Of a stretch of DNA of 64,000 nt, positions 45,660 to 51,913 are shown piece after piece. Each line of letters opens with the position of its first letter. The first letter of the stretch is position 1. The stretch is from Escherichia coli (GTDB taxonomy: Bacteria > Pseudomonadota > Gammaproteobacteria > Enterobacterales > Enterobacteriaceae), in assembly GCF_024298765.1 (NCBI RefSeq), contig NZ_CP101210.1; one strand, 5' to 3'. A program made the position numbers and the translations under genes. The notes under the pieces are model-generated. The model searched no databases, was not told where the DNA came from, and saw only the letters and a program-made list of their open reading frames with translations.

Positions 45660-47213
45660 TTATTTGATATCCTTCACGCGCATACCGTTGAGCTGTTCAT
45701 CCGTAATGGTGTTGCCCGCTTTGAAGTAATCAACCACCGCGTGATAAACGTAATAACCGCCCGTTGTGTTACGCGCTTTCCCTTCGGTAAAGGCGGTAAA
45801 ACCATCTCCACCATCAGCAAGGAAACTCTGAGTAGCAATGTGATAAACCGTCGCATCTTCAATGGGTTTGCCATTCAGAGCCAGTGTGATTACCCGCTGA
45901 CCAACCGGCTTGCTGCTGTCGTACTTCATTTCCAGGCCTTTCGATACCTGTAAAACGCCATTGCTTAAACTTGCGCCGTGTTCCATCAGACTGCGTAATT
46001 GTTTACCCGTGAGTTCCATCGTCACCAGTTCGTTGGGGAACGGGAACGTACTGATGACGCCGCCCATCGTGATCGCCCCTGCGGGGATCTCATTGCGAAT
46101 GCCGCCAGAGTTGGTTAACGCCAATTGGGTGTTTTTACCCGCCGCTACCAGTAAAGCGTCAGCCGCCAGGTTCCCGAGGGAAGCCGATTCACCATAGGCA
46201 CGTTTTAATTCAACCGGCGATTGCGCCACCGTTTGTTGCACCACTTCATCAAGCTTTTTATTCCAGCCGTCGATCACCTGTTTCGTTTGTGGATCGGGCT
46301 TCCACTCGTCAGCGTAAATGGTTTTAAGCTCGAAGTTTTTCACCGTAAAATTATGCGGCTTCTCTTTGTAGTCGAGAACCAGTTTGCCCACATCAATCCC
46401 GCCGCTGTCAGTGGAGAGGATGAGCGTATTGCCGACTTTAATCGGTTCCGGCGTACCCACATGTGCATGTCCGGTGATCAAAATATCCAGCCCTTTCACC
46501 TGACTTGCCGTCTGAATATCTTTATCCAGCGCGCGACGCACATCTGTGCCTCCCATACTGGACTGGCGGGCCGGAACACCTTCATGGATCAGGGCGACGG
46601 TCAAATCAACCTTGCCTTTAAGTTCATCGATATAACGTTGTAGCCATTTAATTTCATCACGCGCCTCAATACCCACTCGCGTGGCAGCAGATACTGTGTC
46701 ATTAAAGGCAAATACACCGTGCAAACCTATAACGCCTATTTTCACACCGTCTTTTTCGATGATGGTATAGGGCTTATCCCAGAATGATTTACTGCTGTTC
46801 TGATAAAAAACATTGCCCTGCACAATCGGGAATTTTGCCTGACTCAACTGTAATAATGTGTTGTCCCAGCCGTGGTCAAATTCATGGTTGCCTATCGTGA
46901 CGGCATCAAACGGCATAGTATTCATAATATCGATAATAGCCTTACCTTTGGTCAGGCTGCTGATATATGGCCCGGTAAAATAGTCGCCCGCATCAAAAAA
47001 CCATGTCGCTTTATTTTTTGCTTTTTCTTGCTTAACCAGCGTAGTGATATTTGCCCAGCCGCCAATATCCCGTTTACCGTCAGCGATCCACGGCACTTTA
47101 TAAGGTTCTACATGCGCATGGAGGTCGTTGGTATAAATAATAGTGACATCTTTAGCGCAAGCCCAGAACGGCAGTGTTAATGCGATACCCGCAGCAAGTA
47201 TTTTAATTTTCAT
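45660..47213 (-). CDS. Secreted bifunctional metallophosphatase / 5'-nucleotidase, UshA/YfkN-like (paralog 1, about 517 aa); accessory
   Basis: ORF 45660..47219 starts on TTG; first ATG is at 47211-47213. Signal peptide [20 protein letters not shown]|KD. Calcineurin-like motifs [27 protein letters not shown], plus a C-terminal 5'-nucleotidase substrate-binding domain. Confidence 0.85.
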
Positions 47214-47345
47214 AAACAATCCCTTTCAGTGAGATAAAGGATTGCTACATTACGTTCTGAAAGACTTATTTATGTGAGAGTAATCACATCTGCAGGGGAT
47301 AGTTGCCGGACAAAATCAACGACCTTGTGAAATCGTTGGTGATAT

Positions 47346-48470
47346 ATGTCGACTCTGTTTACGATTAATGCCTGTAAAACGTTCGGTTGCCGAAATTTGG
47401 GATTGGCCTCATCGGAAGATTACAGTTGGCCAGACTATAAACTGGGTTATCCGGCACTGCACTGTCGGGCATGTGGCAGTTACCCGCCGTTGTTTGACGA
47501 GCAACAATTTCGTGACTGGTTGTCAGTTCACTTATCTACGTGGGCCTCGGAGAAGGGTCATTTCTGCCCGGTATGTTATGGCACAGACATGATTTGTTAT
47601 GGTCACAATCCACAGGGTTCGCAACGCATTCAATGCCGTAACTGCAAAAAAGTCTGGACGCCTAAACAGTATCAGAAAGAAATTACGCATCCCCAGGCCA
47701 TTGAAACCGTTCAACTGTTCATACCCTTTCAAGGGGCCAGCGCAGTACAAAAACTGTATGTTTTAGTCAGTCTTGACGCCACTCGTGGCAACATTCTTCA
47801 TCTCTCCACGAATTATACGCAACATCAGACAGGAGACAGTCTGCGGTACAGTTACAAGGGCAACACAGAACCAACTATGCACCATCGCGATATCGTGCAG
47901 AAGGTAGATATGCGTGAAGCGCAATTCTTGCGCCGGAGCCAGTTCGATGAAATTCAGTATGGCAGTGCTGTACTCAAGCGCAACGGTAAGGGAGCCATAC
48001 TACGCCCGGTTATCACGGCACACGGGCATTTCAGAATACTGAAAATCCGCTATCCAGATGTCAAAACGCATATTATTTCACACGAATGTTTTCTAAGAGG
48101 CGCAATTATTACAGCCTGGGCAGATCAGTTCCGCCAACAACAAGGTGAACTTTGGTTCGTAGAAGAAGAAATCAGTGACAGTAACGCTGATACGCCCTGG
48201 CATTTTAAGGGAACGACATACCATGGTTGGTGGCAAAATCAGTGGCAGCGCTGGGAGCAGGGGAATAACTGCAAGATGGTCTGCCTACTCACGGGAGCCA
48301 GCTTAGAAAGGGGCGCAAATGTTTCTCTGGCAACCAGTCGTTGTTTTATCACATGGCTGACAGACCAACACGACTTTACCCAAAGCGCGTTATTATCCGC
48401 AGGTCGCGTAACGCAAATGCTGACCTCACTGGCGTTAAAATACAATGAATCGCTCACTCCATCTTGTTAG
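47346..48470 (+). CDS. Cysteine-rich hypothetical protein with two N-terminal zinc ribbons (374 aa), the second InsA/IS1-like; function unknown
   Basis: CxxxxC...CxxC (C10, C15, C40, C43) and CPVC-x19-QRIQCRNCKKVW (C74, C77, C97, C100). The second fits the IS1 InsA pattern CPxC...QRYxCxxCRKxW. No recognisable domain in the C-terminal 260 aa. Divergent from paralog 1. Confidence 0.6.
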   Translation: MSTLFTINACKTFGCRNLGLASSEDYSWPDYKLGYPALHCRACGSYPPLFDEQQFRDWLSVHLSTWASEKGHFCPVCYGTDMICYGHNPQGSQRIQCRNCKKVWTPKQYQKEITHPQAIETVQLFIPFQGASAVQKLYVLVSLDATRGNILHLSTNYTQHQTGDSLRYSYKGNTEPTMHHRDIVQKVDMREAQFLRRSQFDEIQYGSAVLKRNGKGAILRPVITAHGHFRILKIRYPDVKTHIISHECFLRGAIITAWADQFRQQQGELWFVEEEISDSNADTPWHFKGTTYHGWWQNQWQRWEQGNNCKMVCLLTGASLERGANVSLATSRCFITWLTDQHDFTQSALLSAGRVTQMLTSLALKYNESLTPSC

Positions 48471-50253: not shown

Positions 50254-50293
50254 AATCTCATTTATCAGTCAATTTATTTAACAAGGAATGCGA

Positions 50294-51913
50294 ATGAAAA
50301 CAGCGCAGCGTACTTTATTTGCCGCAACATTGCTGACTATTTTTTCGACCTCAGTTATGGCGCAGGATGTCACGATTATTTATACCAATGATCTTCACGC
50401 CCATGTGGATTCCTATAAAGTACCATATGTCGCAGACGGAAAACGCGACATTGGTGGCTTTGCCAATATATCTACGTTAGTAAAACAAGAGAAAGCCAAA
50501 AATAAAGCCACTTTTTATTTTGATGCTGGAGACTATTTCACCGGGCCATATATCAGTAGCCTGACAAAGGGCGAAGCAATAATTGATATTATGAATACCA
50601 TGCCTTTTGACGCAGTATCAATCGGTAATCATGAGTTTGACCATGGCTGGGATAATGCCCTCCGACAATTAAGCAAAGCGAATTTCCCTGTTTTATTAGG
50701 CAATGTTTATCATAAAGAGAGTGAGAAACCCTTCTGGAACAAGCCCTACACCATCCTGGAAAAAGATGGCATCAGGATTGGTATTGTTGGGCTACACGGC
50801 GTATTTGCATTTAATGACACGGTCTCGGAGCTCTCTCTCCAGGGACTCGATAATGACAATAATAACCGATTTGATAAATCTTCCGCGACCCTCAAGAATC
50901 AGGGGATTGAAGCACGTGATGAAGTAAAGTATTTGCAGCATTATATCGACGAGTTACGTGATAAGGTTGACCTCACCGTGGCGCTGGTTCATGAAGGCGT
51001 ACCGGCGCGTCAGTCCAGCATTGGCAATACAGATGTTAGACGTGCGCTGGATAAAGATATTCAAACCGCAAGCAAGGTGAAAGGATTGGATATTCTGATT
51101 ACCGGGCATGCCCACGTCGGAACGCCAGAACCAATCAAAGTCGGCAACACCTTAATCCTTTCGACTGACAGTGGCGGTATCGATATTGGTAAATTAATCC
51201 TTGATGTCAACCCTACAGCTCGTACTCATAAAGTGAAGAGCTTTGAGCTGAAAACGGTTTATGCCGATGAATGGATACCCGATCCAACCACACAAAAAGT
51301 TATCAATGGCTGGAATAAAAAACTGGCGGATCTTGTACGCCAACCAGTCGGTGAATCATCGATTGCATTAACTCGTGCCTACGGTGAGTCATCGCAACTT
51401 GGCAACCTGTTTACCGATGCAATGCTTGTCGCTGCACCGACTGCACAAATTGCGTTGATAAACTCCGGCAGTTTACGTGCTGATATAAATGCAGGCACGA
51501 TTACCTTTGGTGACATTACCAGTACATTCCCCTTCAAGAATGAACTTACTGAAATGGATCTCAGCGGTAAGGATCTGCGTAACCTACTGGAACACGGGGC
51601 ATCGCTTACCAATGGCATCCTGCAAATGTCAAAAGGCGCAGAAATGCGCTATACCCTGCAGAAACCAGTAGGTCAGCGCATTGTATCTTTTAAAATTAAT
51701 GGTGAAGAGATCGTTGATACGAATATTTACCATGTTGCGACTACGACTTTCCTTGCACTTGGGGGCGATGGTTTTCTGGCATTCAAAGAAGGGAAAAATG
51801 TCCAGGTCCGCGCCGGAAATAACATGTCCAATGTCGTAATCGATTATTTTAAGAAAGGCCACAAGATTACTCCTGCACAGGTAAATGAAATGCGGGTAGA
51901 AGTAAGCAAATAA
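50294..51913 (+). CDS. Secreted metallophosphatase / 5'-nucleotidase, UshA-like (paralog 3, about 539 aa); accessory
   Basis: ORF 50288..51913; the second ATG at 50294 has better RBS spacing (AAGGA). Signal peptide ...TLLTIFSTSVMA|QD. Closely similar to paralog 1 over most of its length, with a unique Asp/Asn-rich 25-aa insertion. Confidence 0.85.
   Translation: MKTAQRTLFAATLLTIFSTSVMAQDVTIIYTNDLHAHVDSYKVPYVADGKRDIGGFANISTLVKQEKAKNKATFYFDAGDYFTGPYISSLTKGEAIIDIMNTMPFDAVSIGNHEFDHGWDNALRQLSKANFPVLLGNVYHKESEKPFWNKPYTILEKDGIRIGIVGLHGVFAFNDTVSELSLQGLDNDNNNRFDKSSATLKNQGIEARDEVKYLQHYIDELRDKVDLTVALVHEGVPARQSSIGNTDVRRALDKDIQTASKVKGLDILITGHAHVGTPEPIKVGNTLILSTDSGGIDIGKLILDVNPTARTHKVKSFELKTVYADEWIPDPTTQKVINGWNKKLADLVRQPVGESSIALTRAYGESSQLGNLFTDAMLVAAPTAQIALINSGSLRADINAGTITFGDITSTFPFKNELTEMDLSGKDLRNLLEHGASLTNGILQMSKGAEMRYTLQKPVGQRIVSFKINGEEIVDTNIYHVATTTFLALGGDGFLAFKEGKNVQVRAGNNMSNVVIDYFKKGHKITPAQVNEMRVEVSK

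Follow-up and report, generated by a model that had tools for sequence, protein, structure and literature searches.

A probable periplasmic nucleotide-scavenging island between metL and metF of Escherichia coli, with a conserved CRP site and a transposase-derived partner gene

Nucleoside scavenging in E. coli is organised as a regulon under CytR/CRP and DeoR, which comprises tsx, nupC, nupG, deoCABD, udp and cdd. The locus described here resembles this regulon in its Tsx channel and cAMP-CRP logic, with a Tsx paralog and conserved CRP sites, but its putative regulator is a transposase-derived Zn-ribbon protein and not a member of the LacI or DeoR family. E. coli UshA, a periplasmic 5'-nucleotidase and UDP-sugar hydrolase, shares with the three nucleotidase paralogs of the locus (P1, P2 and P3) the two-domain architecture, the metal ligands, the Asp-His dyad, the Sec signal peptide and the two base-stacking Phe residues. 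Nevertheless, identity to UshA is just 27-30%, the three proteins are shorter and lack several UshA insertions, and they score 152-169 bits against the UshA equivalog model, whose cut-off is 600.

The closest solved protein is the "Nucleotidase" of PDB 3IVD/3IVE, structural-genomics entries that we take to be E. coli CFT073 c4898 with a nucleoside bound, and for which the literature searched yielded neither a paper nor any biochemical characterisation. This protein is essentially P1 (residues 21-519, E = 0, 1119 bits), with about 99% identity and five substitutions, whereas identity to it drops to 57% for P2 and 68% for P3. The next-closest solved relatives, the Thermus thermophilus 5'-nucleotidase (PDB 2Z1A), vertebrate CD73 and snake-venom 5'-nucleotidases, align end to end (E = 5e-46 to 1e-31) but are distant and belong to other organisms and cellular settings, CD73 being a GPI-anchored dimer.

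The window, the whole 64-kb stretch of E. coli DNA that was analysed, carries an island of 7.64 kb in place of about 200 bp of the K-12 metL-metF spacer, as delimited by BLASTN of that spacer against the window. GC content is 0.39-0.48 across the island versus 0.52-0.58 for the flanking genes. An identical island is annotated in RefSeq, with start codons of P1, P2 and P3 placed slightly downstream of those of the longest ORFs. The island contains the three paralogs, a second Tsx channel and a divergent 374-aa gene:

45429..53068, no strand: accessory island, bounded by the metF promoter and the 3' end of metL, as delimited by BLASTN
45660..47219, - strand: P1, metallophosphatase/5'-nucleotidase, predicted periplasmic, 519 aa, annotated ATG start at 47213
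47346..48470, + strand: orf374, transposase-derived putative regulator, cytoplasmic, 374 aa, divergent to P1
48700..50253, + strand: P2, metallophosphatase/5'-nucleotidase, predicted periplasmic, 517 aa, annotated start at 48703
50288..51913, + strand: P3, metallophosphatase/5'-nucleotidase, predicted periplasmic, 541 aa, annotated start at 50294
50828..50899, + strand: 24-aa insertion specific to P3 (aa 181-204, ELSLQGLDNDNNNRFDKSSATLKN), N-terminal domain
51990..52850, + strand: tsx2, second nucleoside-specific outer-membrane channel of the Tsx family, 286 aa

A first-pass annotation had placed three paralogous nucleotidases with Sec signal peptides within 45660-51913, P1 inverted and P2 and P3 in tandem, next to a nucleoside channel. 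All of this is borne out: the three ORFs are intact and so oriented, and the 40-bp P2-P3 spacer claimed there holds with the annotated starts (34 bp from the longest ORF). We find Metallophos and 5_nucleotid_C (Pfam) in all three proteins, and an alignment to E. coli K-12 UshA shows that every metal ligand and catalytic residue is retained in each, namely D41, H43, D84, N116, H117, D120, H217 and H252, together with R410, F429, N431, F498 and D504. One consistent change is UshA Q254, which is replaced by His in P1, P2 and P3; the phosphate-binding R375 and R379 of UshA have no aligned Arg but fall opposite Leu and Tyr, with a conserved Arg two residues off, an alignment that is ambiguous at this point. 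The N-termini, judged by inspection, have an n-region with Lys/Arg followed by a hydrophobic core, and small residues occupy positions -3 and -1 of the AXA-type cleavage sites ACA|KD (P1), VLA|QD (P2) and VMA|QD (P3), and the predicted mature end of P1 coincides with the first residue of the PDB construct. No lipobox was seen in the three sequences by the same inspection.

P1 and P3 are the most alike (68.1% identity, compared to 56.5% for P1-P2 and 56.7% for P2-P3), and GC content is 0.481 in P1, 0.409 in P2 and 0.441 in P3; P2 is thus the most divergent and the most AT-rich of the three, in agreement with the earlier reading. The P3 insertion ELSLQGLDNDNNNRFDKSSATLKN is kept in P3 orthologs of Enterobacter, Citrobacter, E. 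coli and E. albertii, while sequence comparison shows that P1, P2 and P3-like genes at greater distance lack it. All three paralogs fall under the curated NCBIfam cut-offs for UshA, CpdB, NadN and LPXTG-anchored nucleotidases, the closest model being that of the YfkN multifunctional family, and therefore their substrates are not transferable by orthology. They form an uncharacterised subfamily of a known kind of enzyme, and sequence, the solved P1 structure and gene context support their assignment as exported dinuclear metallophosphatase/5'-nucleotidases. As for the adjoining channel, Tsx2 reaches 492.8 bits with the NCBIfam Tsx model PRK15106 (cut-off 311) and is 62.3% identical to K-12 Tsx. 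P2, P3 and tsx2 share their direction of transcription, the 76-bp P3-tsx2 spacer contains no CRP consensus match with up to one mismatch, and the three genes are probably co-transcribed.

Three nucleotidase paralogs with a second Tsx are in themselves ordinary and were annotated before. What is new here is the conserved P1-orf374 core, the cross-genus CRP site, and the fold and gene neighbourhood of orf374. P1 occurs in 1843 of 5426 complete E. coli genomes, but P2-P3-tsx2, and with them the complete island, in only 658 of those 1843. The P1-orf374 pair sits between metL and metF in many Enterobacteriaceae with synteny kept, and P1 orthologs of 87-91% identity occupy this position in Citrobacter, Kosakonia, Phytobacter, Kluyvera and S. 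arizonae. The conserved core is thus P1 and orf374, to which P2, P3 and tsx2 are an added module. Other genera hold recognisable orthologs of the P1, P2 and P3 types each, so the duplications behind them are old. Different ages or sources had been proposed from the divergence of P2; a difference in age does exist, between the old core and the accessory module, but the split of P2 against P1 and P3 is rejected.

Both orf374, which lies within the interval originally described, and the CRP sites went unmentioned there. Orf374 has two Cys4 Zn ribbons and an RNase H-like DDE-transposase fold, the latter in a very confident structure model. An N-terminal Cys4 ribbon together with this fold recalls IS1 InsA and the IS1595 transposases, and IS1 InsA is itself a transcriptional repressor. 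Orf374 differs from these in lacking the first and second catalytic Asp, in carrying an additional Cys4 ribbon, the N-terminal one being extra relative to the IS1/IS1595-type ribbon, and in its own set of invariant, family-specific residues (eight Cys, R197, H228, H246 and E247). The IS1/IS1595-type ribbon gives a weak match in Orf374 and one above cut-off in a relative, whereas Pfam DDE_Tnp models do not match Orf374, and no helix-turn-helix is recognisable in it. We conclude that Orf374 is a catalytically degenerate descendant of an IS1/IS1595-like transposase.

In many gammaproteobacteria, genes of the orf374 type have nucleotide or nucleoside catabolism genes as neighbours. In a comparison of distant relatives (21-40% identity), all nine contexts examined adjoin nucleotidase, deo, nupC or phosphatase genes: 5'-nucleotidases at several loci, nupC with a nucleoside phosphorylase, a deoB-PNP-nucleoside symporter operon, nupC-deoCABD, a tal-add-deoCAB operon and, in one case, a class B acid phosphatase and class II cNMP phosphodiesterase alongside a porin. 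CRP-like sites occur in five of eight intergenic regions of such loci. Because of this recurrent neighbourhood, Orf374 is probably a regulator, although the conserved His, Glu and Arg could mark an enzymatic rather than a ligand-binding site.

The intergenic regions of the island contain the following sites:

47223..47263, - strand: conserved non-coding block with inverted heptamers CTTTCAG...CTGAAAG, lying between the CRP site and the P1 start codon
47273..47288, no strand: perfect match TGTGAGAGTAATCACA to the CRP consensus, within the divergent promoter of P1 and orf374
47317..47338, no strand: conserved inverted repeat CAACGA-N10-TCGTTG adjoining the orf374 start
48543..48567, no strand: inverted repeat TGACCGTGA-N7-TCATGGTCA, located upstream of P2 in AT-rich spacer DNA
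48590..48605, no strand: CRP-like site TGTTACTAAGATCACA with one mismatch, about 100 bp upstream of P2

The site in the P1/orf374 promoter is the sole perfect CRP match in the window, where 0.07 would be expected, and of the three matches with at most one mismatch, two are in island promoters. Across an alignment of 20 loci, orthologous and paralogous, that represent more than 10 genera, its half-sites are conserved while the 6-bp spacer is free to vary. In the intergenic alignment the adjacent block hardly changes from genus to genus, and it could be a core promoter, 5'UTR or operator. In the repeat next to orf374 the motif ACCAACGATTT is almost invariant; the repeat also scans as terminator-like on the - strand, but an RNA hairpin is unsupported because pairing is not kept by substitutions in other genera, and we regard it as a candidate operator. 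The P1 and P2 promoter regions have no common motif beyond the CRP sites, so that nothing ties Orf374 to P2-P3-tsx2. No CytR or DeoR operator was recognised at the island by eye.

Taken together, the locus is probably a catabolite-controlled periplasmic nucleotide-scavenging island. P1, P2 and P3 would be exported via Sec and, by means of the dinuclear metal centre and the Asp-His dyad, would convert nucleotide phosphate esters into nucleosides and phosphate; their substrate ranges probably differ, since these are old paralogs kept side by side. Tsx2 may raise outer-membrane permeability for nucleosides and possibly for nucleotide substrates, although it is not evident why an extra Tsx should be needed when a periplasmic nucleotidase yields nucleosides already inside the outer membrane. 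Uptake and breakdown of the nucleosides would then fall to the core genes nup, deo, udp and cdd. Expression of the island is predicted to depend on cAMP-CRP acting at the P1/orf374 promoter site and at the second site before P2, and Orf374, whose gene is transcribed divergently, probably modulates it as well. Scavenging was the function favoured at the outset, and sequence, the P1 structure and gene context still point to it, in line with the in-silico reading already given for this region, "GR 31", in a 2026 genome paper (PMC12928451).

The chemistry would be identical if the enzymes mainly freed inorganic phosphate under phosphate limitation in a Pho-type response, and phosphate acquisition is often served by periplasmic phosphoesterases. 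We consider this unlikely, given that the window contains no Pho box with up to 3 mismatches, that the island promoters hold conserved CRP sites instead, and that the Orf374 family is tied to carbon-catabolic deo, nup and PNP operons. Somewhat less likely still is host manipulation, in which ATP, ADP, AMP or NAD would be converted to adenosine to damp purinergic immune signalling as AdsA does. If true, it would account for the occurrence of the island among extraintestinal pathogenic E. coli; PMC12928451 compares extraintestinal and adherent-invasive model strains, in which the island is complete, and human CD73 is a detectable homolog (E ~1e-32). This alternative, raised by the first-pass annotation, finds no support, however: P1-P3 lack an LPXTG motif and any other surface anchor, reach 81-153 bits with the LPXTG-nucleotidase models (cut-off 1050) and are predicted to be periplasmic and not surface-exposed, while P1 orthologs, like the orf374-P1 core, are frequent in environmental and plant-associated genera such as Kosakonia, Phytobacter, Rahnella and Superficieibacter, and commensal, water and livestock isolates are also among the top island/P1 matches. 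A third alternative is hydrolysis of cyclic or signalling nucleotides (2',3'-cNMP, 3',5'-cNMP, cyclic di- or oligonucleotides), maybe as a counter-measure in phage or bacterial conflict; for cyclic nucleotides it had likewise been suggested. It would fit the cleavage of 2',3'-cNMPs by CpdB and YfkN, both Metallophos/5_nucleotid_C proteins, and the YfkN family as best NCBIfam similarity. With scores of 79-102 bits against CpdB models (cut-offs 486-883), no PADLOC defence model matching any of the five island proteins, and the dedicated class II phosphodiesterase beside one Orf374 relative, which suggests that another enzyme type handles cyclic nucleotides, this alternative also lacks support and appears the least probable; nucleotide scavenging under catabolite control is the reading we prefer.

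A further explanation concerns orf374 alone, which might be a decaying insertion-sequence remnant lying beside P1 by chance and without a role. The Zn ribbon and DDE fold are consistent with this, members of the family are called "IS1 family transposase" in some databases, and the gene evolves about 4 times faster than P1. On the other hand, orf374 has no terminal inverted repeats, and in 1841 E. coli genomes and many genera it stands as one intact copy whose place beside P1 never changes. Such a remnant is improbable given also the confident model, the invariant residues of the family, the purifying selection on the gene (dN/dS ~0.16) and the presence of scavenging genes beside its distant relatives at every locus compared.

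The gene order in this part of the E. coli chromosome is yijF-yijE-katG-metF, island, metL-metB. Alignment of the K-12 metL-metF spacer to the window places 7.64 kb (45429-53068) where K-12 has about 200 bp, and the GC content is 0.39-0.48 in the island against 0.52-0.58 in the flanking genes. The island contains five genes:

45660-47219, minus strand: P1, a UshA-like nucleotidase of 519 aa (longest ORF; annotated ATG at 47213)
47346-48470, plus strand: orf374, a 374-aa ORF annotated as 'hypothetical' or 'cytoplasmic protein'
48700-50253, plus strand: P2, nucleotidase paralog
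50288-51913, plus strand: P3, nucleotidase paralog
51990-52850, plus strand: tsx2, a 286-aa Tsx paralog

The 40-bp spacer given for P2 and P3 in the first-pass annotation holds with the annotated P3 start and becomes 34 bp when counted from the longest ORF. An Rfam scan (E <= 1) returned no riboswitch or other RNA family in the island. The metF upstream region is kept beside the island and includes at 45335-45350 the sequence TTAGACGTCCAGATGT, which looks like tandem MetJ boxes (consensus AGACGTCT); its retention suggests that the island inserted beyond the metF control region. Insertions of IS1A or ISVsa5 inside a nucleotidase gene or orf374 break up the island in E. coli CS18F, E06, CT30, and APEC E12049 (genome matches H1-H3 and H28), which indicates that it is dispensable in those lineages.

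Based on their sequences, P1, P2, and P3 belong to the UshA/CD73-type metallophosphatase/5'-nucleotidase superfamily, with a predicted phosphoesterase activity on nucleotides. All three show the Pfam domains Metallophos (PF00149) and 5_nucleotid_C (PF02872) in N-to-C order (E-values in P1 of 4.1e-12 and 1.1e-38, respectively), as the first-pass annotation had described from the motifs. That annotation had named the absence of metal-ligand residues as contrary to its reading; in the alignment with K-12 UshA all are kept, namely D41, H43, D84, N116, H117, D120, H217, and H252, leaving the metal ligands complete and the His117-Asp120 catalytic dyad intact. Residues equivalent to UshA R410, F429, N431, F498, and D504, which include the two base-stacking Phe, are also kept. 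UshA Gln254 is replaced by His in the three paralogs and in most relatives, and R375/R379 align with Leu/Tyr, with a conserved Arg two positions off, in a region where the alignment is ambiguous. The identity matrix agrees with the described closeness of P1 and P3 (68.1%) and the greater divergence of P2 (56.5% with P1, 56.7% with P3), each paralog being 27-30% identical to UshA. P3 differs from P1 and P2 by a 24-aa Asn/Asp-rich insertion (window 50828-50899) that its orthologs in other genera retain; it may correspond to a surface or interaction loop peculiar to P3.

The cleavable signal peptides announced for all three proteins were recovered by inspection: each combines a charged n-region and a hydrophobic core (Kyte-Doolittle 2.4-2.5 over 10 aa) with A/V-x-A preceding a mature K/Q-D-V-T. 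A pattern check found neither a lipobox ([LVI][ASTVI][GAS]C) nor an LPXTG motif in P1, P2, or P3. The three proteins look like standard signal peptidase I substrates, predicted to be Sec-exported to the periplasm, and the PDB construct of P1 starts at the predicted mature end. The Cys in '...FWACA' of P1 had raised the idea of a lipoprotein, which was dropped as the lipobox pattern is lacking.

None of the paralogs reaches a curated family cut-off. The scores are 151.9, 168.6, and 156.8 bits for the UshA equivalog NF007109 (cut-off 600), 121-133 bits for NadN (TIGR01530, cut-off 436), 79-102 bits, over the N-terminal domain only, for the CpdB models NF006938 and TIGR01390 (cut-offs 486 and 883), and 81-153 bits for the LPXTG-anchored AdsA/Nt5e-type models NF040549 and NF047875 (cut-off 1050), and the YfkN cut-off is likewise unreached, so that P1-P3 make up a subfamily of their own that is biochemically uncharacterised. 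At 42-59% identity its relatives include single Vibrio and Cetobacterium matches, Bacteroidota, Acidobacteriota, and SAR86, and those of Paenibacillus are 37-38% identical. P1 residues 21-519 match PDB 3IVD/3IVE ('Nucleotidase') with five substitutions; these are structural-genomics entries for CFT073 c4898 with nucleoside bound. Searching the literature for locus tags, PDB codes, and WP accessions brought up unrelated papers only, with none on 3IVD/3IVE and no biochemical data on P1-P3. The island corresponds to the genomic region 'GR 31 metL..metF' of a 2026 comparative-genomics paper on strain BEN2908, which lists three UshA-domain ORFs and a Tsx homolog, proposes, without experiments, that nucleotide processing and transport are coordinated, and does not discuss the 374-aa ORF (PMC12928451). 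The nucleotidase finding is thus real but ordinary and already annotated, being an uncharacterised set of a known enzyme kind with one structure solved and the island published in silico. What is added here is a transposase-derived partner family and a conserved CRP architecture.

The last gene of the island, tsx2, encodes by its sequence a member of the Tsx nucleoside-specific channel family: Tsx2 scores 492.8 bits with NF011686/PRK15106 (cut-off 311), residues 2-286 covering profile positions 6-289 of 289. It is 62.3% identical to K-12 Tsx and has a net charge of -6, compared to -12 for K-12 Tsx.

Among 5426 complete E. coli genomes, P1 is found in 1843 and orf374 in 1841, each time as exactly one copy, whereas P2-P3-tsx2 occurs in only 658. 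P1-positive genomes lacking P2-P3-tsx2 have a two-gene form, metL, orf376-P1, metF, in which orf376 (376 aa, about 77% identical to orf374; 7525-8655 in L081 and 5687-6817 in L082) overlaps the metL 3' end convergently by 37 bp with its own 3' end. The metL-metF interval also contains this two-gene core in Citrobacter, Kosakonia, Phytobacter, Kluyvera, Pseudocitrobacter, Superficieibacter, S. enterica subsp. arizonae, and E. whittamii, and the site of orf374, between metL and P1, is constant across genera. Away from metL-metF, an orf374-like gene on the minus strand is followed by a one-directional P1-P2-(P2')-tsx-P3 cluster in Enterobacter asburiae (L008), one E. coli (SCPM-O-B-8794, L024 3624-12471), and E. 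albertii (L028); the order P1-P2-tsx-P3 is also seen in a Citrobacter contig (L023) that begins inside P1. E. coli SCPM-O-B-8794 has five nucleotidase paralogs, as it carries both this cluster and the two-gene form at metL-metF. Judging from the recognisable orthologs of each, the P1-, P2-, and P3-type genes are old paralogs, and the window island consists of the old core and an acquired P2-P3-tsx2 module. The earlier suggestion that the paralogs differ in age or source thus holds in essence, with the split falling between P1 and P2+P3+tsx2. Compared with a two-gene E. coli allele, the window shows a dS of 0.088 in P1 and 1.08 (saturated) in orf374, and this jump across the 126-bp divergent promoter points to a recombination boundary there.

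Using the CRP consensus TGTGA-N6-TCACA, we found three matches with at most one mismatch in the 64-kb window, two of them in island promoters. The sequence features of the island promoter regions are:

47223-47263: conserved block before P1, CTTTCAGAACGTAA.GTAGC...CTGAAAGG (CTTTCAG...CTGAAAG)
47273-47288: perfect CRP consensus, TGTGAGAGTAATCACA, midway between P1 and orf374, its centre about 65 bp from either start codon
47317-47338: conserved block adjoining the orf374 start, ACCAACGATTT...GTCGTTGATTTTG (CAACGA-N10-TCGTTG)
48543-48567: inverted repeat with 9-bp arms, TGACCGTGA-N7-TCATGGTCA, closely preceding the next site, in the AT-rich spacer (34% GC) ahead of P2
48590-48605: CRP-like site with one mismatch, about 100 bp upstream of P2

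The site at 47273-47288 is the sole perfect match in the window (0.07 expected). Its half-sites are kept, with a variable spacer, at 20 related loci that span more than 10 genera, even at pairs whose orf374 homolog is just 37-40% identical, a classical phylogenetic footprint of a predicted CRP site. The two flanking blocks, both non-coding, are almost invariant across genera. An RNA hairpin formed by CAACGA...TCGTTG is unsupported, as the substitutions in other genera are non-compensatory. No operator common to the P1/orf374 and P2 promoters was found among exact 9-mers, 11-mers with one mismatch, or 13-mers with two mismatches, shared words being below the shuffle expectation, and a generic promoter/terminator scan gave fewer promoter-like sites than shuffles.

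The orf374 gene falls within the coordinates of the first-pass annotation, which does not mention it, and has a nucleotidase gene as its constant partner. At the sequence level, Orf374 matches only a weak IS1/IS1595-type Zn ribbon (Pfam, PHROGs, NCBIfam). Its own score is 23.2 bits, under the cut-off of 28, one relative reaches 33.9 bits, and Zn_ribbon_InsA is matched by 8 of 55 family members at E <= 0.001. A profile search of the family against PDB sequences gave generic Zn-finger matches only. The structure model shows an RNase H-like fold of the DDE-transposase type. Out of 1.84 billion proteins, the family comprises 123 cluster representatives (50% identity), of which many are fragments; clusters with a named organism come from Enterobacterales, Vibrionales, and other marine gammaproteobacteria, and members are labelled 'cytoplasmic protein', 'hypothetical', or 'IS1 family transposase'. 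Eight Cys, forming two Cys4 ribbons, are conserved together with R197, H228, H246, E247, W296, and W300. Column 247 (E/D) is the only invariantly acidic one; with the DDE positions assigned by secondary-structure order and topology rather than by residue-level superposition, neither beta1, which has a conserved T121, nor the position following beta4, occupied by P221, shows a conserved acidic residue, and the canonical D, D, E triad thus appears lost. Orf374 shares the RNase H-like fold with active IS1/IS1595 elements but differs from them in apparently lacking this triad and in having neither terminal inverted repeats nor multiple copies or variable positions. That orf374 might be junk is a less supported view, given that the gene is single-copy and syntenic with a dN/dS of about 0.16; with these features and no flanking terminal inverted repeats, it is neither an active insertion sequence nor a pseudogene.

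We compared the gene neighbourhoods of Orf374 relatives of 21-40% identity, in which nine contexts were readable. The genes found beside these relatives include:

5'-nucleotidase, divergent or adjacent (Citrobacter, Atlantibacter, Vibrio taketomensis, V. scophthalmi, Photobacterium)
nupC and a nucleoside phosphorylase
deoB-like gene, PNP, and a nucleoside:H+ symporter
nupC-deoCABD with TatD and a Bmp-type ABC transporter (Agarivorans)
tal-add-deoCAB
porin, class B acid phosphatase, and class II cNMP phosphodiesterase, opposite the relative (Salmonella serovar Give, L086 and L087 2023-7389)
sulfatase and maturase, opposite an outer-membrane channel and a P2-like nucleotidase (S. enterica subsp. 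arizonae)

Nucleotide or nucleoside scavenging genes are present in all nine contexts, and 5 of the 8 associated intergenic regions contain CRP-like sites that deviate by no more than one mismatch, where a rough estimate would expect about 0.06. The simplest reading of Orf374 is a dedicated regulator, possibly controlling its own gene through the conserved repeat that adjoins the orf374 start; it may instead have an enzymatic role. More broadly, and with a confidence that falls slightly short of even, we propose that the Orf374 family represents undescribed exapted DDE transposases, made of two Cys4 Zn ribbons and a catalytically degenerate RNase H fold, that would serve with CRP as dedicated transcription factors, possibly nucleoside/nucleotide-sensing, for periplasmic nucleotidase, phosphatase, nupC, and deo operons, the window island being one instance of an unrecognised widespread design that pairs a regulator with a scavenging module. 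A literature search for nucleoside regulators derived from domesticated transposases gave no relevant paper. In the proposed mechanism, P1 and the P2-P3-tsx2 operon would be switched on by cAMP-CRP when carbon is limiting, P1 probably being under Orf374 control too. Once exported, the three enzymes would remove phosphate from periplasmic nucleotides, their specificities overlapping or complementing one another, Tsx2 would raise the outer-membrane flux, and core transporters with the deo, udp, and cdd enzymes would finish catabolism.

Other roles for the island have less in their favour than such carbon-driven scavenging. Phosphate acquisition of the Pho type would also employ periplasmic nucleotidases, but no Pho box with at most three mismatches occurs within the 64-kb window. 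Adenosine production for immune evasion would parallel AdsA-type enzymes, and P1-P3 carry no LPXTG motif and score far under the corresponding cut-off. A function on cyclic nucleotides is similarly weakened by the low CpdB-model scores, and a defence-island reading was dropped because no PADLOC defence-system model matches any of the five island proteins.

As members of an uncharacterised, structurally solved subfamily of predicted periplasmic nucleotidases, the three enzymes are of modest weight. About one third of complete E. coli genomes carry P1 and about one eighth the full island, extraintestinal pathogenic lineages included, and the paralogs may broaden the nucleotides usable by carrier strains in gut, urine, or tissue. 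The partner gene is the more interesting point. If Orf374 is a regulator, it would be a clear example from bacteria of a DDE transposase co-opted as the transcription factor of a defined metabolic function, and would add a missing regulator to the nucleoside/nucleotide scavenging loci of Enterobacterales and Vibrionales, for which CytR and DeoR are the textbook regulators. Both the transposase-derived family and the CRP architecture are directly testable.

Two of the neighbourhoods show further features. The Salmonella serovar Give locus is flanked by rve-type transposase genes and may be a mobile periplasmic cNMP/NMP scavenging module. In S. enterica subsp. arizonae (L069 3450-10530) and Citrobacter sp. 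FP75 (L033), genes for an arylsulfatase and an anaerobic sulfatase maturase precede a family member 24-25% identical to Orf374, with the outer-membrane channel-like gene and the P2-like nucleotidase divergent from them, a context that may point to a connection with sulfated nucleotides or sugars.
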